Shown in pieces: positions 2,561 through 20,695 of a stretch of DNA of 20,928 nucleotides. The stretch is from a virus: UHGV virus genome UHGV-0008299; one strand, written 5' to 3'. A program made the position numbers and the translations under genes. The notes beneath the pieces are model-generated. The model saw only the letters and a program-made list of their open reading frames with translations. It made no database searches and was not told where the DNA came from. Every line of letters begins with the position of its first letter. The first letter of the stretch is position 1.

Positions 2561-4759
2561 ATGGCAGAAAAAAAGATGACTGACTGGCATCGCAAGGTGC
2601 TGTGCAACTTTGATAATGCCTGGTCAGCAACGCAGGATATGCGTGAGCAGATTATTGAGGCTCAACGTTTCGTCCGGGTATCCGGCGCACAGTGGGAAGG
2701 CAGCACAAACGCTGGTTACTCATTTGATGAAGGCAGGTTTGAGCATTACCCGCGCTTTGAACTGAATAAGATTGCCCGTGAATGTGATCGCATCATTGGC
2801 GAGTATCGACAGAATCGCATCAGCGTTAAATTCAGGCCGAAGGACGACAAGGCATCGGAAGCGTTAGCCGAAAAGATGAACGGCAAATTCCGCGCTGACT
2901 ATCAGGAAACATCCGGTGGCGAAGCGTGTGATAACGCATTTGATGATGCCGTAACGGGCGGATTCGGTTGTTTCCGCATGTGTGCCGATTACGAAGATGA
3001 AATGGATCCGAGTAACGAGCAGCGCCGCATCAGCCTTCTCCCGGTTTACGACCCAGCGACATGCGTCTTCTTCGATCAGGACAGCAAGCAATATGACCGC
3101 TCTGATGCTATGTGGGCTATGGAAATGTTCTCCATGACGCCTAAAGCGTTCGAGGCTGAATACCCTGATTCCATTGCGGCAAGCCTTTCTCGTGATGACA
3201 CTGGTACTCAGTATGACTGGTCAACGCCCGATGCCATCTATGTTGGACGCTACTACGAAGTTCGCATAGAGAAGGTGAAGCTCACGGCGTGGCGCAACTC
3301 TGTTAGCGGAGAAACGGCAATCTATGATGAAGAACAGATCAAAGATATTGTTGACGAGCTAACCGATGGTGCATTCGAGCTGATCGGTGAGCGGACAGTG
3401 AAGAAACGCCGAGTTTATTGCGGTCTTCTGTCTGGCGCTGAATGGCTGGAAGAACCGAAGCGTATTCCGGGCGAACATATTCCTCTCATCCCGGTATATG
3501 GGCGTCGCTCATTTGTTGATAATCAGGAGCGAATCGAAGGCCACGCAGCAAAAGCGATGGATGCGCAGCGTCTTGAGAACCTGATGGTTTCCATGATTGC
3601 AGATAACGCTACTCAGGCTGGCGGTGATGGCATTCCTGTAGTTGATGTTGACATGATTCCTGGTCCTCTTGCCACTCATTGGGCGGAGCGCAACAAAAAT
3701 CGCCCGGCGTTCCTGCCGATGGTCAGTCTGAAAAACAAAAACGGAGATATTACTGCGCAGGCTCAGGTCAGCAGTTATACGCCTCCGACACAAATGCCTC
3801 CAGCTCTTGCCGGGCTATTGCAGTACACCGGAACGGCTATTCAGCAAATTACAGGTGCGTCGCAGCTTGAGAACATGCCGAGCAACGTCGCCACCGATAC
3901 CGTTGATAGCATCTTTAACCGGATGGATACGCAGTCCTATATCTACATGGACAACATGGCTAAATCCATGCGTCGCGCTGGCGTTGTGTGGCTTTCTATG
4001 GCGCGTGAGGTCTATGGCAGTGATACGCCGATGCGTATCGTTAATGAGGACGGCAGCGATGACGTGGCGCTGATGACTGGTGAAGTGGTTGACCGTCAGA
4101 CAGGGCAGGTTATCGCGCTTAATGACCTTTCGCAGGGCAACTATGAAGTGACTGTCGATGTCGGTCAGTCGTTCGCTACTCGCCGTGATGCAACGGTTAA
4201 GTCGTTACTTTCCATGCTGGCACTTATCCCACCAGGAACGCCGAAGCACGACCTTGTATCGTCGATGATTCTCGACAATATGGACGGCGAAGGGATGGAC
4301 GACCTTAAAGAATACAACCGCAATCAGTTGCTTCTGTCTGGAGTTATCAAGCCGAGAACGCCAGAAGAGCAGCAAATGGTTGAGCAGGCGAAACAACAAC
4401 AGGCCAGTCAGCCAGATCCGGCTATGGTTGCTGCGCAAGGTCAGCTTCTTGCTGGTCAGGCTGAATTGCAGAAAGCGCAGAACGAACAGGCAGTCATTCA
4501 GGTTAAAGCATTCCAGGCACAGACTGATGCTCAGGTTGCAGCGGCAAATGTTGTGAAAATCCTCGCATCTGCCGATAGCCAGCAGAAATCTGATATCCGC
4601 GAGGCTCTGAAACTGCTCGGACAGTTCCAGCAACAGCAAGGAGACAATGCCCGTGCTGATGCAGAGCTTGTCCTGAAAAGTCAGGCACAGGGCCATGCGC
4701 AGCGCATGGACATCAGCAGCATCCTGCAAAAATCAACTCAGCAACAACCACAGCAGTAA
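2561..4759 (+). CDS. Portal protein (P22 gp1-like)
   Basis: 732 aa immediately after the large terminase. Gln-rich helical C-terminus, as in the P22 portal barrel; size matches P22 gp1 (about 725 aa). Confidence 0.9.
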   Translation: MAEKKMTDWHRKVLCNFDNAWSATQDMREQIIEAQRFVRVSGAQWEGSTNAGYSFDEGRFEHYPRFELNKIARECDRIIGEYRQNRISVKFRPKDDKASEALAEKMNGKFRADYQETSGGEACDNAFDDAVTGGFGCFRMCADYEDEMDPSNEQRRISLLPVYDPATCVFFDQDSKQYDRSDAMWAMEMFSMTPKAFEAEYPDSIAASLSRDDTGTQYDWSTPDAIYVGRYYEVRIEKVKLTAWRNSVSGETAIYDEEQIKDIVDELTDGAFELIGERTVKKRRVYCGLLSGAEWLEEPKRIPGEHIPLIPVYGRRSFVDNQERIEGHAAKAMDAQRLENLMVSMIADNATQAGGDGIPVVDVDMIPGPLATHWAERNKNRPAFLPMVSLKNKNGDITAQAQVSSYTPPTQMPPALAGLLQYTGTAIQQITGASQLENMPSNVATDTVDSIFNRMDTQSYIYMDNMAKSMRRAGVVWLSMAREVYGSDTPMRIVNEDGSDDVALMTGEVVDRQTGQVIALNDLSQGNYEVTVDVGQSFATRRDATVKSLLSMLALIPPGTPKHDLVSSMILDNMDGEGMDDLKEYNRNQLLLSGVIKPRTPEEQQMVEQAKQQQASQPDPAMVAAQGQLLAGQAELQKAQNEQAVIQVKAFQAQTDAQVAAANVVKILASADSQQKSDIREALKLLGQFQQQQGDNARADAELVLKSQAQGHAQRMDISSILQKSTQQQPQQ

Positions 4760-4849
4760 TTAACCCATAACGTGCAATGGCTGTCTTTATGAGGCCTGGC
4801 GCCCTATTGCCTTCCGATGGGCGGAACATCGAGTAAACAGGGGTAACAA

Positions 4850-5746
4850 ATGGACCAGATGGCAGAAAACACACCAGAAGTTGAAATCGAAACCGACGCG
4901 TCAGAGCAGATTCCTGATGATGTCGAACTGGCTAAAGAAGTCGAAATAGAAGATGGCAGTGAGTCCTCCGGCAATGATGCAGAGGAAGCTACTGAAACTG
5001 ATGACGACGAATCAGAACAGGAATTCTACTTTGGTGACGAAAAGCTGGATTCGCCAACCAGCGAAGATGGCGCAGAGCATGGACTGGTAAAACACCTGCG
5101 CAAGACGATTAAAGAGAAAGACCGTGAGCTGAAAGAGCTGATGCGTCAGTCTCAGAAACCCGTCGAGCAGCAGCCGGTAATCACTCAACCACCGCGAATG
5201 CCAAAACTGGATGATGAGGACATCGGTTTCGATGAGGAAATCTATCAGCAACGCATGGCTAAGTGGGCAGAGGATAACGGCAAGTACCAGCAACAGGAGA
5301 TGGCTCGCAAGCAGAAGGAGCAGGAGCTTCAGGCTGCCTATCAAGAGCGATTATCCAAATATCAGCAACGTGTTAAGGCTCTCAAAGTTCCTGGCTATCA
5401 GGAAGCAGAACAGGCCGTACTCGAGGAAATCCCCATCGAGACACAAAACGCGATCCTGTTTGAGTCAGAAAAGCCGGAAATCGTTGTTCTGGCGCTTGGT
5501 CGCAACGCTGAACTGCGCAAGCAACTGGCAGAGGCTACCAACCCCGTAGCAATTGGTCGTCTGCTGGAACGTATCGAATCGAAGGCTAGAATCATGCCAA
5601 AAGCAAAAACCACGGCAGCCACAACCCCGAAAGTTAAGGGGAGCAACGGCGCAGTAATCAACAACCTCGACAAACTTCTCGAAAAAGCGCGCGACACCGG
5701 TGATTACACCGAATACCGGGCGGCGAAGAACAAAGCTAAAAAATAA
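4850..5746 (+). CDS. Scaffolding protein (P22 gp8-like)
   Basis: 298 aa between portal and coat. Highly acidic N-terminus, charged helical middle, basic C-terminal end. Size and position match P22 gp8. Confidence 0.8.
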   Translation: MDQMAENTPEVEIETDASEQIPDDVELAKEVEIEDGSESSGNDAEEATETDDDESEQEFYFGDEKLDSPTSEDGAEHGLVKHLRKTIKEKDRELKELMRQSQKPVEQQPVITQPPRMPKLDDEDIGFDEEIYQQRMAKWAEDNGKYQQQEMARKQKEQELQAAYQERLSKYQQRVKALKVPGYQEAEQAVLEEIPIETQNAILFESEKPEIVVLALGRNAELRKQLAEATNPVAIGRLLERIESKARIMPKAKTTAATTPKVKGSNGAVINNLDKLLEKARDTGDYTEYRAAKNKAKK

Positions 5747-5766
5747 TCCATCGGAGCTAAATACCT

Positions 5767-11482: not shown

Positions 11483-12898
11483 ATGGCTACGTGGCAACAG
11501 GGTATTAATTCTGGTGGTTTTCTGGCTGGCATCGGTACGCAAAATGAGAATGCGCCAAAGGCAAGCGACATTAACGCAACGCTTGGTCTGATCCGCGAAA
11601 ACAATGAACTGGCTCGCTCAGGTGCAAATAACGTTGGCCTGACCGCGTTACGTGGTCTGGCTGGAGTTGCTGATATTTACAATCAGGAACAGCAACAGAA
11701 AGCTATTAGTGCGTTCAATAAGGTTCACGCTGATGCATGGGCTTCTGGTGATCCATCGGGACTATTTAAGTTTGCCCAGGAAAATCCAGCGTTTGTTGCA
11801 CAGGCACAACAGGCGTTTTCCGGTCTTAATGATCAGCAACGCAACGATATGGGCGATTTAGCCATGAGGGCTAACGTCGCTCTTTCTCAGGGGCCGGAAG
11901 CCTACAGTAAATTCATTACTGACAACAAGGACAGGTTAAATCGCGTTGGTGCTAATGCTGACTGGATGATTCAGACAGGTATCCAGAATCCAGAGCAGCT
12001 ATCACACATGCTGACTACTATGTCTCTCGGTGCGCTTGGACCAGAAAAGGCGTTTGCTGTTCAGGATAAGATGGCTGGTCGTGAAATTGACCGAGGCAGG
12101 CTGGCAGAGACAATCCGCAGCAATCAGGCTGGTGAAGCACTTCAGGCGAGAGGGCAAAACCTTTCCTATCAGTCAGCAATGACTGGGCACAATATCGCAG
12201 CACAACGCTTGGCTCTGGATCAGCAAGAGTTCGGGTTTAAGATGCAGCAAGCGCAGGAAAAGGCTCAGCAGTTGATTAGCGAAGCACCTAAGCTGTCAGT
12301 AAACATGGAAAAAGGAATCGAGACGGCTGTAAACAATGCCACAGCATCATCAAACTCAGCCAATTCCATGAGTGCGCTTGCTCAACAGTTCAGAGCAGAA
12401 AAACCAACGACAGGTTTGTTCGGTAACGCACAGAACATGTTCGCAAAACTTACCGGAAGCGATACGACATTGCGTGATTTGCGCATTCGCCAAAATGCCC
12501 TTGTTAACAGTCAGGTTCTTAAATTCCTACCTCCCGGCCCAGCAACGGATAAAGACGTTGAGATCGTTAGACAGGGTGCGCCAACTGACATGGATAACCC
12601 TGAGACGGTCGCAAGATGGCTTGATGCAATGGCAAACCTTGAGCGACGAAACGCGCAGTTTAATGAGTTTAAAGCCGAGTGGATGAGCGCGAATGGCAAC
12701 CCTGGACAATCGCGTAATGGCGGTCAGATATTGGGGTTGGATGTTAAAAAAGGTGAATCATTGGGGAGTGCCGTTAAGCGGTATATGTCAATGAATACTG
12801 ACGCAGCGCCAGCACAAGATTCGACACCTTCAGGAGAACCACGGAGTCAGGTTGGATCATATACCTCAAAATCAGGCATTCAATTTACGGTGGAATGA
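11483..12898 (+). CDS. Ejection protein, P22 gp20-like
   Basis: 471 aa, the same size and position as P22 gp20. Confidence 0.7.
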
Positions 12899-14901
12899 TG
12901 AAAGTAACTGCAAACGGTAAGACATTTACCTTTCCTGATGGTACGAGCACCGAAGATATTGGCACCGCCATTGATGAGTATTTTGCTGGTCAGTCAGCAC
13001 CAACACAACAAGGTGTTCAGCAATCGCCAGCAGACAACTCACTTGCATCAGGATATGCACAGCTTGCCACTCAGCAGAAGGAAGGACTAGATCGCTCTGC
13101 TGAGCAAGGGGCTGTTTTAGGTGCTGCAATGCGCGATGCCGTTACCGGTGAAAGCCGAATGACACCAGAAATGGAGAGACTGCAAAATGTTGGGTCTGCT
13201 CCAGAGCTTAATAGCTTAAGCACTGATGCGCTGCGTGCTGGATTGGGGCAGCTATTTGGTTCCGACGCTTCACAGGAGAAAATACTGCAAAGTATTGGCG
13301 GGAAAATCCGGAAGGATGAGAAGGGAAATTCCATAGTCACCCTTCCTTCAGGGGAATATGCACTTAACAAGCCTGGTTTGTCACCGCAGGATATAACGTC
13401 ATTCTTGGCAAATGCTCTTGCATTCACTCCAGCAGGTAGAGCTGCGTCTGTTGTAGGTGCAACACTAAAATCAGGCGCTACTGATTTAGCTTTACAGGGT
13501 GCCACTAAGATCGCTGGCGGTGAGAATGTTAATCCAGTTCAAACTGCAATTTCTGCTGGTCTTGGTGGGGTACTAAAGGGTGTAGAAAACACCGCAAGCG
13601 CAGTGTCTCGTTCTGCTATGGGTAAGATTGCTCCTGAAAAACAAGCTCAGATTGACTTTGCCAAGCAGAACAACTTGCCACTGATGACAACAGATCTTGT
13701 GGAACCGGGAACAAATATTGGTAAGCAAGCACGAGCTATGGCTGAGCGAATCCCAATAGCCGGAACAGGTGGGATAAGAAATGCACAGCAAAAGGCCAGG
13801 GAAGATTTAGTTAGAACATTTAGCGATAATGTTGGTGGAATATCTGACGCACAACTTTACCAATCAGCTACTCGTGGTCAGCAGCAATTTATTCAGGCTG
13901 CTGGCAAGCGGTACGACAGGATCATCAGTTTGATGGGGGATACTCCTGTTGACATCACTGGAACAGTGAAAGCAATTGATGAGCAGATTTCCAAGTTAAC
14001 TCGCCCAGGAGTATCGCAAGACCGCTCAGCTGTTTCTGTCCTTCAACAGTTTAGAAATGACATCACCAGCGGTCCAAATAACCTGCAATTAGCTAGAGAA
14101 AACCGTACAAACTTACGTAAGCGCTTTATGGCAGCACCTGACGAGGTCGATAGAGATACGCTGGAGAAAGCTGCGCAGTCTGTTTATAACGCATACACAA
14201 CAGACATGAAAAAAGCGGTTGGCGCAAAACTAGGTGCGAAGGAAGCGCAAAACATGTCGCGTGTTGATCGTTCTTGGGCAAAGTTCAACGACATGATGAG
14301 CAATACACGTGTCCAAAAAGCTATTCAGAGTGGTAAAACAACGCCAGAAGATGTCACTAAACTAGTATTCAGCCAAAGCCCAGCGGAAAGGGCGCAACTT
14401 TATCGATTGCTTGATGATAGTGGGCGTCAAAATGCTAGAGCAGCACTTGTTCAGCGTGCAATGGATAAGGCGACAAGCGATTCAGGAAAGCTTAGCGTTG
14501 AGAAGTTTATTAATGAAATGAAAAGGAATCGGAAGCAGGCTGAGACGTTCTTCAGAGGAGAGCATGGGAAACAGCTTGATGGGATAATGAAATATCTTGA
14601 TTCCACTAGACAGGCAGCTACTGCTGCCGCAAGCCCACTAACAGGGCAAATGGTAGCTGGTCCAGCAGCGCTGATAACAGCTCTTGCGTCTGTTACAAAT
14701 CCAATGTTTGCAAAAGTTGCGGCAGTTGGAGCTGGTATCGGTATGGCTGGCAGGGGCTATGAGTCACGCGCGATGAGGAACGCATTACTAAAGTTAGCAA
14801 ACACGCCAAAAGGAAGTACTGCTTATGATAGAGCGATCAGACGGGTATCTGAAACTCTTACACCTCTAATTCAGGCTTCAAGTGAGCAAGCCCAGCAGTA
14901 A
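12895..14901 (+). CDS. Ejection protein, P22 gp16-like
   Basis: 668 aa. Last gene of the rightward structural operon before the immI region, in the position of P22 gp16. Start overlaps the upstream stop (ATGA). Confidence 0.7.
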
Positions 14902-14909
14902 AAAGTTGG

Positions 14910-15230
14910 TTAGCGGTTGATGGTTGCTTTTTTCGGGTCATACCATCTCGGCCATTCTTTCAGGAATGGGAATGAGTCGGGAGCGTGGTTCTTTTTGTAC
15001 GATTTAAGCAGCCTTAACCGCTCAATCGCACACTCATAAACCTCTTGTTGCCCTGTAGTCATCTCGGTCCATGAAAGGTGATCCATTGATAAGACAACGT
15101 TTTCAGCTTCTTTTATGAGGGCGTTTTTATTTCTCACCGCAGCAGCATGGCTGACAGAGCAATCCTGCCATATTCTTAAAAGCCAAATAGCTAAGCAGAT
15201 GAAAAAAATGGTAGAGAGCGATATGTACAT
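14910..15230 (-). CDS. Hypothetical small membrane-anchored protein (immI cargo)
   Basis: 106 aa with ATG start. Strong Shine-Dalgarno (AAGGAG, reverse complement of 15238-15243) about 7 nt upstream. N-terminal hydrophobic helix ISLSTIFFICLAIWLLRIW. AT-rich. Confidence 0.5.
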   Translation of the reverse strand: MYISLSTIFFICLAIWLLRIWQDCSVSHAAAVRNKNALIKEAENVVLSMDHLSWTEMTTGQQEVYECAIERLRLLKSYKKNHAPDSFPFLKEWPRWYDPKKATINR

Positions 15231-15310
15231 GCCGATCTCCTTAGATTTATCAATGCTGCATGATTTTCAACAGACATCAATCATGCAGCTATAGGTAATA
15301 AATCAAGAAA

Positions 15311-15820
15311 CTATTGAGAACGTTTGTCTTTTTGAGACTCTAATATAGCCAATACCTTATAAAGAGATTGGTTTGTTGAGTCTAATTTTTGATCAGTGTT
15401 ATCAATCCTTGACTGTAATACTGATTGGTTGTTTTGGATAGTAGCCATTATCTCTGCCTTACTGGTTTGGATGTTTCCTGTTAGCTCTTGTCGTGATGAT
15501 TCAACTTTATCATCTATAGTGCCTCGAATCGTCCATGTGGCGGCAACGATAGAACCAATGATAGCAACTGCAACCCCGTATAGCTCTAAACGTTTCACGG
15601 TATCACGACCTTCTTCTTTGTGTTGCTCTTCTTGTAGGCTAAATATTTGTGGTTCCTTTGACGGATTTCTGTCAGTTGGTCTGTAATACTCTGAATATTT
15701 AGCGTTTTCTATTGAACTCCATAACGATTTGTCAAAGTCAAGGTTTTCATGTTGGCTTTGAGCATCTCCATAAATACTAGGTGATTTATTGTGAACATGT
15801 TGGTCAAACATTATCTCCAT
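15311..15820 (-). CDS. Hypothetical single-pass membrane protein with coiled-coil C-terminus (immI cargo)
   Basis: The track ORF starts at GTG 15823; the first ATG is at 15820. One central hydrophobic helix (LYGVAVAIIGSIVAATWTI) followed by a Gln/Ser/Asp-rich heptad-like region. Overlaps the upstream zinc-ribbon ORF by about 17-20 nt. AT-rich. Confidence 0.55.
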   Translation of the reverse strand: MEIMFDQHVHNKSPSIYGDAQSQHENLDFDKSLWSSIENAKYSEYYRPTDRNPSKEPQIFSLQEEQHKEEGRDTVKRLELYGVAVAIIGSIVAATWTIRGTIDDKVESSRQELTGNIQTSKAEIMATIQNNQSVLQSRIDNTDQKLDSTNQSLYKVLAILESQKDKRSQ

Positions 15821-16151
15821 CACCCTTTACGAATTTTCCAGAAGAGATATTTTCACTAACTTTGTTTAAACTAAAAAAGTGGAAGAAACCGCAAGTGGTG
15901 CATTGCATGGCTACCATGTTAAGACTATCGTTGCTATAAGTATCTTGATTAACAGGATTATTAGGCAAGCTTTTACCTGGTATGGATGGGCCTATAACTT
16001 CAACACCATCATCTTTTTTAAGATGCTCAGGTGCTAAAAGAGTCCAGTTTGTATTGCTGCATATTGGGCATACATAAGTTTTTTTGAATGAAGTCAAGTA
16101 ATTACTAAAAGACTCAAAAGTAACTTTTAAGTATTGCTCCTTACTGCTCAT
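15804..16151 (-). CDS. Hypothetical zinc-ribbon protein (two CxxC pairs), immI cargo
   Basis: 115 aa with CPIC and CTTC motifs about 55 residues apart. Its ATG overlaps the mnt stop (TAATG on the minus strand). gagg Shine-Dalgarno 6 nt upstream. AT-rich. Confidence 0.55.
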   Translation of the reverse strand: MSSKEQYLKVTFESFSNYLTSFKKTYVCPICSNTNWTLLAPEHLKKDDGVEVIGPSIPGKSLPNNPVNQDTYSNDSLNMVAMQCTTCGFFHFFSLNKVSENISSGKFVKGDGDNV

Positions 16152-16390
16152 TATTGGCCTCGAATCTTCTTAAGTACGCTAATTGCAATATCCATTGCTT
16201 CCTTCTCTGTTTTTGTGAGATCTTGAGATGTCGATGGTATGACCTTTTCTCTGTTAATCTTAATCCATAGCTGTATTGCAGCTATGATTTCAGCATTGAT
16301 AGAGCGCCTGTTTGTTGCCGCAATGTGAGTAAGCTGCTGCTTGATTTCACTTGGCATTCTTACGTTAAATTGTGGATCGTTTCTAGCCAC
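16151..16390 (-). CDS. mnt: Mnt repressor (ribbon-helix-helix)
   Basis: N-terminus MARNDPQFNVRMPSEIKQQLTHIAATNRRSINAEI parallels P22 Mnt (MARDDPHFNFRMP...NGRSMNSEL). GTG start with GGAGAG Shine-Dalgarno 4 nt upstream. Divergent from arc. Confidence 0.85.
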   Translation of the reverse strand: MARNDPQFNVRMPSEIKQQLTHIAATNRRSINAEIIAAIQLWIKINREKVIPSTSQDLTKTEKEAMDIAISVLKKIRGQ

Positions 16391-16483
16391 GTCGCTCTCC
16401 TGTTATTTGTTGACATGCTAGAACGGTAGTAGTACGCTTTCAATAGTAGTACGGTGCTATCATTTAATGGAATGGAGTGGAAT
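16391..16483. promoter_or_regulatory. Divergent mnt/arc control region (Pant and Pmnt candidates with repeated operator-like elements)
   Basis: Plus strand: -35 TTGACA at 16410-16415 and a weak -10 TACGCT at 16433-16438. Minus strand: -35 TTGAAA (reverse complement of 16438-16443) and -10 TAGCAT (reverse complement of 16415-16420), 17-bp spacer. Direct repeat TAGTAGTACG at 16427-16436 and 16444-16453. Confidence 0.5.
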
Positions 16484-16645
16484 ATGCAAGGCGCAAGAAA
16501 AATGCCGCAGTTCAATTTGCGGTGGCCTAAAGAAGTATTGGATTTGGTACGCAAGGTGGCGGAAGAGAATGGTCGGTCTGTTAACTCTGAGATTTATCAG
16601 AGAGTAATGGACAGCTTTAAGAAGGAAGGGCGCATTGGCGCGTAA
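16484..16645 (+). CDS. arc: Arc repressor (ribbon-helix-helix)
   Basis: [53 protein letters not shown] is near-identical to P22 Arc as I recall it. The track ORF starts further upstream at 16454, but ATG 16484 with ggagtgg upstream gives the canonical Arc length. Confidence 0.88.
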
Positions 16646-16725
16646 AGTTGAAGCCCCAACTACGGGAACAGTCAGGGCTTCGGTTGTCGGTAAATTCGTG
16701 GAGAAAAACCAACATGAATAGTATA
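16646..16725 (-). ncRNA. sar: sar-like antisense RNA candidate (promoter plus transcript)
   Basis: Minus-strand -10 TATACT (reverse complement of 16720-16725) just inside ant. Transcription from about 16712 would run about 68 nt through the ant ribosome-binding site to a hairpin (GAAGCCC/GGGCTTC, 16650-16681) followed by CUUUA. P22 has a 68-69 nt sar RNA at this position. Confidence 0.4.
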
Positions 16726-17649
16726 GCAATTTTAGAAGCAGTGAACACCTCTTACGTGCCTTTCAATGGTCAGCAGATTTTAACCGCTGTGGCTGCCGGA
16801 GTGACTTATGTAGCGATGCGTCAAATTGTGGAAAACATTGGTATCGACTGGACTGGTCAATCTGTTAAGTTGCGTAAAATGAAGGACAAATTCAACTGTA
16901 GAGATATCTCTATGGTTGCTGCTGATGGCAAGTTACGTAAGCTTTTATGCATCCCGCTGAAGAAGTTAAATGGATGGCTGTTCAGCATCAACCCTGAGAA
17001 AGTTCGTGCTGACATCCGTGATAAACTGATTCAGTACCAGGAAGAATGCTTTAGCGTGCTGCATGACTACTGGACTAAAGGTCATGTAGTTAACCCACGC
17101 AAAGCTAAAAAGGCGTTGCCGGGTAAAATCACCACTGAACAGCAGGAAGCCATTAAACAACTCGTCATGAGTCGCGGTCAGTCTCTGCCAAAAGAAAAAC
17201 AGGCTAAGGCGATGATCACCATGTGGTCGTCACTGAAATCCCATTTTGGATGTTCGTACAAAGAAATCAGTGAGGAGCAGTTTACCGAAGCACTATCACT
17301 TGCAGCTCGAGTTCCACTTGAAGGTGAGTTCATTGGCAAACAAGAGAAGAAAACCAACGAGCTTTCTGCAAAAGAAGCAAACAGCCTTGTATGGTTATGG
17401 GATTATGCTAACCGCTCACAGGCATTATTCCGCGAACTGTATCCGGCATTAAAACAAATTCAATCGAACTATTCCGGCAGATGCTACGACTACGGTCATG
17501 AATTCTCGTATGTTATCGGAATGGCGAGAGACGTTTTAATCAATCACACACGCGATGTTGATATCAATGAGCCAGACGGACCAACGAATCTTTCCGCATG
17601 GATGAGACTTAAGAATAAAGAATTACCTCCTTCAGTACATAACTACTGA
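16714..17649 (+). CDS. ant: Antirepressor Ant
   Basis: The track ORF starts at TTG 16648; the first ATG is at 16714 ([21 protein letters not shown]...), with ggag at 16700-16703. Position after arc, about 310 aa, as for P22 Ant. Confidence 0.8.
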
Positions 17650-17749: not shown

Positions 17750-20695
17750 ATGACAGACATTACAGCCAATGTGATCGTATCGATGCCTTCGCAACTCTTC
17801 ACTATGGCGCGTTCTTTTAAAGCCGTAGCCAATGGTAAAATTTATATCGGTAAAATTGACACTGACCCGGTAAACCCTGAAAACCAGATTCAGGTTTATG
17901 TGGAGAACGAAGACGGCTCTCACGTTCCTGTTTCGCAACCAATCATCATTAACGCCGCTGGTTATCCTGTATATAACGGACAGATTGCCAAATTCGTAAC
18001 TGAGCAAGGCCATTCTATGGCTGTTTATGATGCGTATGGTGCACAGCAGTTCTATTTTCCTAATGTGCTGAAGTATGATCCTGATCAGCTACGGCAGCAA
18101 TTAGAAGACCCAGATGGAGCGGATAAATACCCAAAACTTCAGATAGCAAGATGGAGAGACAGTTATGATCTAAGAGGTTGGGGGGCTATTGGTGATGGTG
18201 TTCATGATGACACATCAGCTCTATCAGAATTACTTTCTGTTGCAACAGGTGGTGAAAAGATAGATGGGCGAGGGCTTACTTTTAAAGTGTCAACTCTTCC
18301 GGATGTCAGTCGATTTAAAAATGCTCGTTTTTTATTTGAGAGAATACCGGGTCAGCCTCTTTTTTATGCTTCTGAAGATTTTATCCAGGGAGAGTTGTTT
18401 AAAATTACAGATACACCGTGGTACAACGCCTGGACGCAGGATAAAACGTTTGTATATGACAATGTCATCTATGCGCCTTTTATGGCTGGAGACCGCCATG
18501 GTGTAAATAACCTCCATGTTGCATGGGTTCGCTCAGGAGATGACGGGAAGACCTGGACAACGCCGGAATGGCTTACAGATTTACATGAAAACTATCCCAC
18601 AGTTAACTATCACTGCATGAGTATGGGGGTTGTCAGAAATCGCCTTTTTGCTGTAATTGAGACGCGGACCGTGAGCGGAAATAAACTGCAGGTTGCAGAG
18701 TTGTGGGATCGCCCAATGAGTCGCAGCCTTCGCGTTTATGGTGGTATAACGAAAGCAGCAAATCAGCAAGTCGCTTATATTCGCATTACTGATCACGGAT
18801 TATTTGCTGGTGATTTTGTCAACTTCTCAAACTCTGGTGTTACAGGTGTTACCGGGAATATGACGGTGACTACTGTTATTGATAAAAATACTTTTACAGT
18901 TACGACGCAAAATACCCAGGATGTGGATCAGAATAACGAGGGTAGATACTGGAGTTTTGGTACATCATTTCACTCGTCACCATGGAGAAAAACCCGTCTT
19001 GGAACTATTCCTTCTTTTGTTGACGGAAGCACTCCTGTTACTGAGATTCACAGTTTTGCGACGATTAGCGATAACAGTTTTGCTGTTGGCTACCATAATG
19101 GTGATATTGGGCCACGCGAGCTTGGGATACTCTATTTCTCTGATGCTTTCGGTTCTCCTGGTAGCTTTGTTCGCAGACGCATACCTGCAGAATATGAGGC
19201 GAATGCATCTGAGCCATGTGTAAAATATTATGATGGCATTCTGTATCTGACGACCAGGGGAACATTAAGTACTCAACCCGGTAGTTCATTACACAGAAGC
19301 TCTGATTTAGGTGCATCATGGAATTCTCTTCGCTTCCCAAATAATGTTCATCACTCAAACCTTCCTTTTGCCAAAGTTGGCGATGAGCTGATTATTTTTG
19401 GCAGTGAGCGCGCATTTGGTGAGTGGGAAGGAGGAGAACCTGATAACCGTTATGCAGGAAATTATCCAAGAACATTTATGACCAGAGTTAACGTCAATGA
19501 GTGGAGTCTGGATAATGTAGAGTGGGTTAATGTTACTGATCAGATTTATCAGGGCGGAATAGTTAACTCTGCGGTTGGTGTTGGTTCAGTTTGTATCAAA
19601 GACAACTGGCTGTACTACATTTTCGGTGGGGAAGACTTTCTAAACCCATGGAGCATAGGGGATAACAACAGAAAATATCCTTATGTTCACGATGGTCACC
19701 CGGCTGATTTGTATTGTTTCAGGGTAAAAATTAAACAGGAAGAATTTGTTTCAAGGGATTTTGTCTACGGAGCCACTCCTAACAGAACGCTTCCTACTTT
19801 TATGTCGACGTCAGGCGTGAGGACGGTTCCTGTACCCGTTGATTTCACAGATGATGTTGCCGTCCAGTCACTGACTGTCCATGCCGGTACATCAGGACAA
19901 GTTCGCGCGGAAGTCAAACTTGAGGGTAATTACGCCATTATTGCGAAGAAAGTACCGTCTGATGATGTTACCGCTCAGAGATTAATCGTTAGCGGCGGTG
20001 AAACAACGTCTTCAGCAGATGGTGCAATGATAACGTTGCATGGTTCCGGAAGCAGTACTCCACGTCGCGCGGTATATAACGCACTCGAACATCTTTTTGA
20101 GAACGGAGATGTTAAACCTTATCTTGATAATGTAAATGCTCTTGGTGGTCCGGGAAACAGGTTCTCGACAGTTTATCTTGGCTCCAACCCTGTAGTTACC
20201 AGTGACGGAACATTAAAGACAGAGCCGGTCTCTCCTGATGAAGCATTGCTGGATGCCTGGGGTGACGTCAGGTATATCGCTTATAAATGGCTGAACGCTG
20301 TCGCTATAAAGGGGGAAGAAGGGGCGAGGATACATCATGGTGTAATCGCGCAGCAACTTCGTGATGTTCTTATTTCTCACGGACTCATGGAAGAAGAAAG
20401 CACAACATGCCGCTATGCCTTTCTTTGTTATGACGATTATCCCGCAGTATATGATGACGTCATTACTGGCCAAAGGGAAATGCCGCTGACTGATAATGAC
20501 GGGAGCATCATTGTTGATGAGGATGATAATCCAGTGATGGTAATGGAAGACATCATTGAGCGCGTTGAAATAACGCCAGCAGGATCTAGATGGGGGGTCA
20601 GACCTGATCTCTTATTCTATATCGAGGCAGCATGGCAGCGCAGAGAAATAGAAAGAATAAAAGCTAGGTTAGACTTAATAGAAGGGAAGCACTAA
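17750..20695 (+). CDS. Tailspike: P22-type head-binding domain fused to a sialidase-like (endosialidase-type) receptor domain and C-terminal intramolecular chaperone domain
   Basis: 981 aa. The first ~115 residues ([11 protein letters not shown]...VLKYDPDQ) parallel the P22 gp9 head-binding domain. Downstream there are two Asp-box motifs (SGDDGKTW at 18533-18556, SSDLGASW at 19298-19321) and a C-terminal region with an S-x4-K motif (SDGTLK, 20201-20218) and ...[20 protein letters not shown]..., resembling the self-cleaving chaperone domain of K1 endosialidases. Confidence 0.8.

Follow-up and report, generated by a model that had tools for sequence, protein, structure and literature searches.

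The analysed stretch of DNA, in the following called the window, has a length of 20,928 nt and represents a P22-like phage, as gp20, Arc, sar, Ant and an endosialidase tailspike were all identified. Between the gene for an ejection protein and the repressor gene mnt lies a cargo stretch, 100% identical to Escherichia phage N7, with three genes here called A, B and C in the order in which they follow mnt. The interval and its borders contain these features:

12895..14901, plus strand: gene 16-type ejection protein of 668 aa, which borders the cargo slot on the left and is located 3′ of gp20 (Pfam Inj_translocase)
14910..15230, minus strand: gene C, 106 aa, ORF; phrog_10450, E 3.2e-52 (PHROGs family without assigned function)
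15240..15307, minus strand: hairpin in the B-C gap, perfect 11-bp arms (15279-15289/15255-15265), 13-nt loop, no T-run
15311..15820, minus strand: gene B, membrane protein of about 166-169 aa, ORF; phrog_24865, E 1.6e-116 (PHROGs family without assigned function)
15804..16151, minus strand: gene A, 115 aa, Cys4 zinc-ribbon-like, ORF; phrog_4293, E 4.7e-31 (PHROGs family without assigned function)
16151..16390, minus strand: mnt, 79 aa, GTG start, Arc/Mnt-family ribbon-helix-helix repressor (Pfam Arc PF03869, E 4.8e-13)
16415..16443, minus strand: Pmnt-like promoter, −35 TTGAAA (16438-16443), 17-nt spacer, −10 TAGCAT (16415-16420), consensus scan 9/12
16484-16645, plus strand: arc, immI (Pfam Arc 6.3e-31; N7 annotation)
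16646-16713, minus strand: sar antisense RNA, immI (Rfam RF00262, 89.5 bits)
16714-17649, plus strand: ant, immI (Pfam P22_AR_N/C; N7 annotation)

The three minus-strand ORFs which the initial annotation had placed between the last ejection gene and mnt are thus present, with gene 16 ending at 14901. Divergent homologues exist for A, B and C, by which all three are, judged from their sequences, genuine genes. The gene 16 product has no Pfam match at 1e-5, and the gene 16 equivalent is labelled 'injection protein' or 'P22-gp16 family' in RefSeq. On the right side, the N-terminus of Mnt (MARNDPQFNVRMP) can be aligned with P22 Mnt, and the whole protein shares 81% identity with its counterpart in L011 (loci used for comparison are given as L numbers), a locus that also has an A-B pair. 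The Pmnt-like promoter matches the annotated P22 mnt promoter and the L011 equivalent column for column in the alignment and, by analogy with P22, should be active in the lysogen.

Gene A begins within the stop codon of mnt, and the reported overlap TAATG was found as described. The designation of its product as a zinc-ribbon protein is justified by a CxxC...CxxC pattern with cysteines at positions 28, 31, 84 and 87. C28, C31, C84, C87 and G88 (ORF numbering) are invariant across 13-14 homologues, which keep all four cysteines at identities of 24-35%. Owing to these four invariant cysteines, A probably binds zinc. The AF2 model of A is of low confidence (pLDDT 66); it contains strand E35-38 after the first CxxC knuckle and strands E77-83 and E89-93 around the second, and the two conserved CxxC knuckles on predicted beta-hairpins correspond to a generic zinc-ribbon fold. 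A search for structural neighbours of this model found none, and no named Pfam zinc-ribbon family scored above its gathering threshold with A. The protein is without transmembrane segment and is presumably cytoplasmic. It belongs to a rare family with 16 clusters (50% identity) in a collection of 1.84 billion representatives; an exhaustive search of these gave 16 matches at E<=0.001, eight of them at E<=1e-10. The exhaustive search was required to find homologues, as a word-indexed protein search with A retrieved its own cluster only.

The start of gene B is uncertain and may be a GTG at 15823 (170 aa), an ATG at 15820 (169 aa) or an ATG at 15811 (166 aa). Every one of these candidates overlaps the end of A, and the overlap of both ORFs, which had been noted before, is seen as GATAATGTTTGA at the A end and B start. 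The protein consists of a variable N-terminal part of about 70 aa, one predicted transmembrane helix, formed by a single strongly hydrophobic 19-mer (residues 77-95), and a conserved helical tail. The homologues of B are 24-49% identical and have the core ATWTIS..I.D...SR.EL.G..Q...E...RID..EDK in common, with an 11-residue indel in the tail. Since the positive charges are balanced on both flanks of the transmembrane helix, the topology of B is ambiguous. In the initial annotation B had been regarded as a single-pass membrane protein with a coiled-coil tail, of which the single pass is borne out by the hydrophobic 19-mer; the tail is proline-free and helical, but its hydrophobic period (3.6-3.65 in nine of ten homologues) is not significant for most sequences singly, so that the coiled coil was not retained.

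Gene C is convergent with gene 16, leaving a gap of 8 nt, and is preceded by an AAGGAG ribosome-binding site located 7 nt upstream. Its first 21 residues are hydrophobic and form a predicted N-terminal transmembrane anchor, in agreement with the membrane-anchored protein of 106 aa proposed originally. The homologues of C are 64-76% identical and share 25 invariant columns. The AF2 model (pLDDT 78) contains one helix from residue 4 to 47 and another from 58 to 76. A sigma-70 promoter for C was found neither by scan nor by eye.

The searches for known families and structures gave no function for the three proteins. A, B and C have no match above threshold in PADLOC, Pfam and NCBIfam, where only sub-threshold noise was obtained, and the statement that none of them belongs to a known defence family therefore stands. 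In PADLOC-DB 2.0.0, which covers systems described up to 2023, A, B and C matched no family at E<=1, and the lambdoid homologues of A and B as well as the relative of C in phage mEp043 matched none at E<=0.01. The same family scans returned nothing useful for the lambdoid homologues and other occupants of the slot. When PDB sequences were searched with profiles of the three proteins, nothing was obtained below E 0.02, and no matches to PDB or BFVD entries were obtained in the structural searches. Signal peptides, adhesin and enzyme signatures were looked for in A, B and C and not found.

The three genes had been described as one AT-rich block. A GC content of 34.8% for A and 37.7% for B fits with this description, whereas C (43.6%, GC3 0.505) agrees with ant (43.9%) and with the gene of the tailspike (44.3%) in a window of 47.7% GC. 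The block itself could not be upheld, because 19 other complete E. coli records have C but not A-B, and their sequences are shared with the window only to about 15249. A-B and C are therefore considered two separate modules. The position of the genes had been equated with that of sieA. The order in P22 is gene 16, sieA with its own promoter, the mnt terminator, orf59a and mnt. According to this order, A-B occupy the orf59a slot and only C, which adjoins gene 16 in all P22-like loci examined, lies in the sieA slot. At least eight different contents of the gene 16-mnt interval were counted across the loci compared, which confirms the suggested variable hotspot; the interval is already known as a variable 'ant moron' (PMC2629481). 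The mnt-coupled cargo slot of P22-like prophages thus holds many uncharacterised genes. Non-defence cargo is also present in slots behind repressors.

The position in this interval, which holds sieA in P22, raises the question of superinfection exclusion at the level of entry, by which B with A as a helper, C, or both would block the delivery of P22-like genomes from the inner membrane, in a SieA-like manner and without cell death. SieA interferes with the gp16/gp20 conduit, and gene 16, with which C is always convergent, is its target gene (PMC10883804). Both B and C are predicted to be membrane proteins, and gp16 differs between loci along with the cargo (34% identity of gp16 between the window and L011). 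Nevertheless, A-B occur equally in lambdoid siphovirus-type prophages, which are without gp16/gp20. To our knowledge, the entry blockers SieA, Imm and Sp of T4, HK97 gp15 and Cor are all single envelope proteins, for which an obligatory soluble zinc-ribbon partner would not be expected. In addition, B and C have no similarity to P22 SieA, one of three SieA types (BLASTP, best E 4.3), and one predicted transmembrane helix each instead of three, for which reason both were rejected as SieA homologues. Altogether, entry exclusion is regarded as unlikely.

The arrangement of mnt, A and B supports a translational coupling of A to mnt and of B to A. Beside the mnt/A junction, the A/B overlap amounts to 8-20 nt in the window and to 1-20 nt in other loci; L012 and L014 have short gene calls for B, but their open upstream frame has an ATG overlapping the A end. 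A B homologue was found directly 3′ of the A homologue in every A context examined. The translation of A and B from the Pmnt transcript, which had been claimed before, agrees with this coupling and with the Pmnt-like promoter upstream, while the co-transcription itself is predicted from these features. By means of the coupling from mnt through A to B, both proteins are expected wherever Mnt is made, which is the lysogen in P22, and expression of A and B in lysogens is accordingly likely. Compared with Mnt, the cargo appears to diverge fast: between the window and L011, where Mnt is 81% identical, the identity is 35% for A and 37% for B (25% in the N-terminal and 46% in the C-terminal part of B).

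The strongest regularity of the A-B pair is that a prophage repressor gene of the same strand immediately precedes it, as was observed for about 24 of the 25 distinct loci with homologues that were inspected. This is the position of RexAB-type genes, directly downstream of the lysogenic repressor, and a shared transcript may be assumed. The upstream repressor is Mnt in P22-like and CI-type in lambdoid prophages; in the latter, A-B fill the cI-N slot, where lambda has rexAB. All 16 IMG/VR loci found with a profile of B show the repressor, then an A-like ORF and then B on the same strand, ten with CI-type repressors (HTH + S24) and six with Mnt. The CI-type repressors of these ten loci belong to at least five sequence types with 26-99% identity to reference repressors. 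The same linkage was present in L006-L015, L017 and L018 (CI) and in L011 (Mnt), and the sole exception is L016, where A-B are located 250 nt past a tmRNA gene. The different repressors behind which A-B keep their placement thus number at least six and belong to two unrelated types. As far as sequence comparison can indicate, this linkage is good circumstantial support for a function expressed in the lysogen, whereas the position behind a repressor as such proves only likely co-expression in lysogens.

For C, the connection to repressors is similar. It follows Mnt directly or nearly so in L021, L004 and L020 and an HTH+S24 repressor in L003, and a distant relative of C is located 3′ of cI in phage mEp043. 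Among 50,697 phage records searched by tblastn, A, B, C and a lambdoid A homologue match only N7 and HZ41, and C in addition mEp043; CUS-3, P22 and other sequenced isolates in these records are without A, B and C. A narrower profile of B had no match in contigs with one genome per species. Most E. coli carriers are near-identical strains, so the prevalence of carriers says little on selection.

These carriers are mainly pathogenic or animal-associated E. coli, which is in line with a lysogenic-conversion cargo that has nothing to do with phages and serves, e.g., stress tolerance, envelope change or host interaction, or with nearly neutral hitch-hikers, and other occupants of the slot are equally uncharacterised. 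Moreover, mnt and its neighbour genes in Gally, a P22-like prophage of LF82, are induced 6-40-fold inside macrophages (PMC9928086), which shows that the mnt region can respond to host conditions and fits with conversion cargo; LF82 itself does not belong to the 57 genomes with C. Yet a conversion cargo or hitch-hiker would not readily account for the strict pairing of A and B, for residues that stay invariant at 24-35% identity and for the recurrence in independent immunity regions, which together argue for a selected function tied to lysogeny. The missing signal peptide, adhesin and enzyme signatures speak against it as well, and this explanation is considered quite unlikely.

The gap between B and C is occupied by the hairpin listed above, for which an RNA folding energy of −27.3 kcal/mol (z = −3.3) was calculated. 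A GC hairpin is found immediately 3′ of B in seven other loci, followed by a clear T-run in L006, L007, L011, L012 and L017 and, in L014 and L016, by one that is shorter or interrupted. The hairpin of the window thus takes the place where B has an intrinsic terminator in other loci. The hairpin of the window was dropped as a canonical terminator, since it has no T-run and a simple scan calls none, and as a repeated operator, since its arms were found exactly only here. An Rfam match to mir-2013 (E 0.054, far below the gathering score) is attributed to chance.

A further variation of the slot was identified in L020. Its first product is a zinc-ribbon protein, for which hhalign gave a probability of 90% with the A family, and its second is tail-anchored and XhlA-like, with a match to PF10779 that is below threshold (E 5.8e-5, 23.6 bits against a Pfam cut-off of 34.7). 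The resemblance of this partner to XhlA of prophage lysis cassettes, although sub-threshold, is compatible with a toxin-antitoxin-like addiction or lysis-timing module, in which B would act as a membrane toxin with A as its antidote, and the pair would stabilise the prophage or modulate lysis instead of providing defence against other phages. A small soluble gene placed first and overlapped by a membrane gene corresponds to the usual antitoxin-then-toxin order, and the operon starts with a ribbon-helix-helix or HTH repressor as in many type II systems. However, no match to toxin or antitoxin families was found in Pfam, NCBIfam and PADLOC, where only sub-threshold ribbon-helix-helix matches to Mnt itself appeared. 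Since A-B keep the same place behind two unrelated repressor types, they seem to be cargo and not the partner of the repressor. A toxin-antitoxin module is therefore distinctly improbable as a separate explanation; it overlaps with the preferred one, because toxin-antitoxin and abortive-infection roles are compatible.

With a probability of roughly 0.55, the locus is best explained by two independent cargo modules that use the transcription unit of the lysogenic repressor, A-B being a two-part prophage defence and C a separate exclusion or conversion factor. In the first module, the mnt-A-B operon, A and B would be made alongside Mnt. A could serve as an intracellular sensor or regulator and B as a membrane effector, either by a membrane collapse that aborts the infection, as is thought for RexA/RexB, or by a block of genome entry. 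The second module, gene C, is probably a single-protein exclusion or conversion factor, always downstream of a repressor, and might be expressed by read-through of the weak B-C hairpin or from another promoter. We infer the anti-phage role of A-B and of C, and their topology as well.

Every lysogenic cell expresses the genes that share a transcript with a prophage repressor, and the classic occupants of repressor-linked slots (rexAB, bstA, sieA) are anti-phage systems. The repressor linkage thus turns three 'hypothetical proteins' into a specific and cheaply testable hypothesis. If A-B defend, they would form a compact system, about 280 aa for both proteins together, with separable soluble and membrane parts, which could be easier to dissect than RexAB. 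Among the pathogenic E. coli in which P22-like prophages reside are K1-specific and Shiga-toxin-producing strains, where prophage-encoded resistance is of relevance to phage therapy. A wider proposal, tentative and put at somewhat less than even odds, is that A-B are founding members of a new two-component prophage immunity system, a cassette placed behind whichever repressor maintains lysogeny and a functional replacement of RexAB in lambdoid prophages. Together with the pair of L020, which would be distantly related, it might represent a wider class of 'zinc-ribbon plus membrane protein' systems on repressor transcripts, and C might form a second family, independent of the first but with this lifestyle in common.

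Among known proteins, XhlA (PF10779) of prophage lysis cassettes resembles B in having a short helical or coiled segment and a single transmembrane helix. B has no XhlA match, however, and its domain order is reversed, with the transmembrane helix on the N-terminal side of the helical tail. In P22, the place of A-B is taken by orf59a, which lies 3′ of mnt and 5′ of the terminator preceding the sieA slot. It is likened to A-B by this position and differs from them as one ORF of 59 aa without mnt overlap and without family match.

[quoted passage not shown] The window genes are also found between genes 16 and 9, C in the exact slot beside gene 16, and C is likewise a small membrane protein of a P22-like prophage. 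In contrast to SieA, B and C have one helix each, and C is without recognisable promoter. The analogy with SieA is positional only and limited to C.

BstA of BTP1 and relatives is encoded after the prophage repressor, a pattern that A-B also show. It consists of one large protein, which is cytoplasmic, associates with DNA and has a cognate aba element (PMC8585504), and it has no similarity to A, B and C according to PADLOC. The cI-N slot is a recognised site of lysogen-expressed abortive-infection genes, e.g., rexAB and bstA (PMC8585504).

For A, B and their lambdoid homologues, no sequence similarity to RexA or RexB of lambda was detected (no PADLOC, Pfam or NCBIfam match). RexA is much larger than the 115-aa protein A and lacks the Cys4 motif, and RexB is polytopic, whereas B has one predicted transmembrane helix and a helical tail. 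RexA/RexB cause abortive infection and are expressed together with cI from PRM. In both cases two genes lie directly 3′ of the lysogenic repressor on the same strand, the A-B homologues even in the same cI-N slot, and both pairs combine one soluble with one membrane component, as predicted for A and B.

The three minus-strand ORFs between gene 16 and mnt are real genes, which belong to two modules, the A-B pair and a separate gene C. They agree with the initial annotation.

14910-15230, minus strand: gene C, an ORF with a hydrophobic N-terminus (residues 1-21)
15311 to 15811, 15820 or 15823, minus strand: gene B, an ORF with an uncertain start
15804-16151, minus strand: gene A, an ORF of 115 aa with cysteines at positions 28, 31, 84 and 87

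As had been noticed before, the start of A overlaps the mnt stop (TAATG), and B begins within the final codons of A (GATAATGTTTGA). A GAGG ribosome-binding site precedes the A start by 6 nt. All three genes had also been described as AT-rich and as a single block. The first statement holds for A (34.8% GC) and B (37.7% GC) against 47.7% for the window, but not for C (43.6% GC, GC3 0.505). Only A and B are therefore compositionally foreign, since the values of C match those of ant and the tailspike gene. The single block was not upheld, as another 19 complete E. coli records lacking A-B have C next to gene 16, at about 97% identity. The sequence shared with these records stops at about position 15249, which lies 19 nt ahead of the point where C begins.

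The window comes from a P22-like phage (Lederbergvirus), of which it represents the late region. Its immI region is complete (Mnt, Arc, sar antisense RNA, Ant), as a full-length sar is present between arc and ant, and its tailspike is a 981-aa endosialidase, which makes the phage K1-specific.

Window, gp20: Pfam Inj_translocase
12895-14901, plus strand: protein of 668 aa in the gene 16 position, no Pfam match at E 1e-5
16646-16713, minus strand: full-length sar antisense RNA between arc and ant (Rfam RF00262, 89.5 bits, E 6.8e-19)

Gene 16 is very divergent in the window: its product is only 34% identical to that of the P22-like prophage of GCA_008011815.1 (L011), and PF26808 (Phage_P22_gp16) is matched by the gene 16-position proteins adjoining the C homologues in two other prophages (L020, L021). 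The region 14800-16500 is 100% identical to Escherichia phages N7 and HZ41, where A, B and C are labelled 'hypothetical protein'. The stretch from gene 16 over mnt to arc is identical to N7, whereas 17750-20695 differs, encoding the 981-aa endosialidase (K1) in place of a 709-aa tail protein; the window is thus a mosaic. Among 5,426 complete genomes of E. coli, 41 have the whole interval at ≥99% identity, and not one of the 5,426 contains as much as 80% of the window. Its nearest relatives are CREC7837, which is the closest overall, and SCAID URN1-2021; they cover 75% of the window (about 95% identity) and have C but lack A-B.

In the P22 record, gene 16 is followed by sieA with its own promoter, the mnt terminator, orf59a and mnt. 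A-B therefore occupy the orf59a position in the mnt transcription unit, so that the sieA position, formerly assigned to all three genes, applies to C only.

16415-16443, minus strand: Pmnt-like promoter (TTGAAA-17-TAGCAT), aligning with the annotated P22 Pmnt and the equivalent site of L011
15279-15289 and 15255-15265: arms of a perfect 11-bp hairpin between B and C (extended stem 15240-15307, -27.3 kcal/mol, z = -3.3)

The hairpin has no T-run and was not called as a terminator by the scan. A GC-rich hairpin also lies immediately after B in seven other loci, with a clear T-run in five of them and a short or interrupted one in L014 and L016. By comparison with these loci, the hairpin of the window delimits the A-B cassette, but transcription may pass it. 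Neither a scan nor inspection of the sequence showed a sigma-70 promoter for C, which may be expressed by read-through or from a transcript of its own. The Pmnt of P22 immI is active in the prophage, and mnt is annotated with 'maintenance of lysogeny' in the P22 record. In the P22-like prophage Gally, mnt and its neighbours are transcribed in lysogens (PMC9928086).

When 1.84 billion representative proteins were searched exhaustively with HMMER, no more than 16 proved to be related to A (E ≤ 0.001). Fragments aside, they have about 104-160 aa and 24-35% identity, and retain the four cysteines, G88 (ORF numbering) and several aromatic residues. A has no hydrophobic segment and, given its four invariant cysteines, is presumably cytoplasmic. 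In B, a single hydrophobic 19-mer (residues 77-95) precedes a polar tail that lacks proline. Its relatives (24-49% identity) have the transmembrane helix and a tail motif (ATWTIS..I.D...SR.EL.G..Q...E...RID..EDK) in common, while the N-terminal 70 or so residues vary. An 11-residue indel in the tail, equal to three helical turns, would preserve the register of a continuous helix. The aligned B homologues fall into two length classes exactly 11 residues apart in the helical tail, the longer form being found in the window, L011 and L017.

Each A homologue examined is directly followed by a B homologue with an overlap of 1-20 nt. In L012 and L014 a short B was called, and the frame is open upstream to an ATG overlapping the end of A. 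Between the window and L011, identity is 81% for Mnt but 35% for A and 37% for B (25% in the N-terminal part, 46% in the tail). The cargo therefore diverges much faster than the repressor, or was exchanged between distant alleles.

The A-B pair follows repressors of different types. Four distant B homologues (P0004-P0007) are located in lambdoid prophages between a 235-aa repressor (HTH and Peptidase_S24) and the N gene, the slot which in lambda is occupied by rexAB. They are preceded and overlapped by a 125-aa ORF with 34% identity to A (E 5e-23). The A homologues of L012-L015, L017 and L018 show the same arrangement with different CI-type repressors, and L011 has the pair behind mnt. IMG/VR scanned with the B profile gave 16 loci, and all of them show B overlapped by an A-like ORF that immediately follows a repressor gene of the same strand, which is CI-type in ten and Mnt in six. 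The ten CI-type repressors comprise at least five sequence types (26-99% identity to reference repressors). The sole exception overall is L016, where A-B begin 250 nt beyond a tmRNA gene; prophages commonly use such genes as attachment sites. This locus may be a prophage edge or remnant; at 3386-4794 the pair precedes dinI and a small S24-like gene, with no recognisable repressor ahead.

In the mnt-coupled slot of L020 (2196-2886), another P22-like prophage, an analogous pair precedes the C homologue. Its first gene encodes a 121-aa CPxC...CxxCG protein distantly related to the A family (hhalign probability 90%, E 1.5e-6). The second protein (110 aa) is helical towards the N-terminus and ends in a transmembrane helix, a layout similar to that of B with reversed domain order, and resembles XhlA (PF10779, E 5.8e-5, under the cut-off).

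Without exception, the more distant homologues of C (64-76% identical) converge on gene 16. Like A-B, C follows repressors: Mnt in L021, L004 and L020, and one of the HTH+S24 type in E. coli HB37, where no other gene lies between. This CI/LexA-type repressor (L003, 4387-5028) stands in the usual place of mnt in a P22-like prophage, so the repressor in the immI position can evidently be replaced by an unrelated type. Among sequenced phages, the only distant relative of C (38% identity over 58 aa) is mEp043_049, located directly after cI and ahead of PL.

The interval had been suspected to be a variable hotspot, and its contents indeed differ in CREC7837, K71-77, HB37, KSC207, L011 and L020. Among the prophages that have C but no A-B, K71-77 has between C and the repressor a 69-aa protein and two opposite-strand genes, KSC207 a truncated mnt, and CREC7837 a 193-aa protein matching nothing in Pfam or PADLOC. 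The latter gene (L038, 4044-4625) overlaps the mnt stop by 4 nt and is another uncharacterised occupant of the mnt-coupled slot. In L011, the slot adjoining gene 16 (5034-5758) encodes a 104-aa and a 128-aa protein, both with N-terminal signal-peptide-like sequences, one of them weakly matching the N4 gp8 domain (PF25713, E 9e-4). The gene 16-tailspike interval is described as the variable 'ant moron' (PMC2629481), in which sieA sits in P22 (PMC10883804), and the region between cI and N is known as a hotspot of mosaicism, in which the abortive-infection systems rexAB and bstA are found (PMC8585504).

Judging by their placement, both modules are very likely co-expressed with the lysogenic repressor. 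A-B are best read as a putative two-part defence, in which A, presumably in the cytoplasm, would act as sensor or regulator and B as membrane effector. An abortive, RexAB-like mode is weakly favoured over a block of phage entry, since entry blockers seldom need an obligatory soluble partner, A-B serve siphovirus-type and podovirus-type prophages alike, and the analogous pair of L020 includes a partner resembling a lysis-associated protein. For C, a membrane protein that acts by itself, as SieA does, is more likely. Since several K and R follow its helix and no charge precedes it, the helical domain of C probably faces the cytoplasm.

A, B and C gave nothing above threshold in PADLOC 2.0.0 (systems to 2023), Pfam and NCBIfam. 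Their PHROG matches are function-unknown families, and structure and PDB-profile searches gave no match, so that the modules are members of no family testable here. Neither the variability of the slot nor the concept of defence genes linked to repressors is new. As far as checked, and one 2025 screen of E. coli prophage defences aside, there is no earlier description of the A-B family, of how strictly it is paired, of its occurrence in both immI and immC, or of the separate C family. A-B and C are candidates for a defence role. B and C do not resemble SieA in sequence or in the number of transmembrane helices, and the likeness of the modules to SieA is one of placement only, whereas that to RexAB comprises both placement and the two-part layout.
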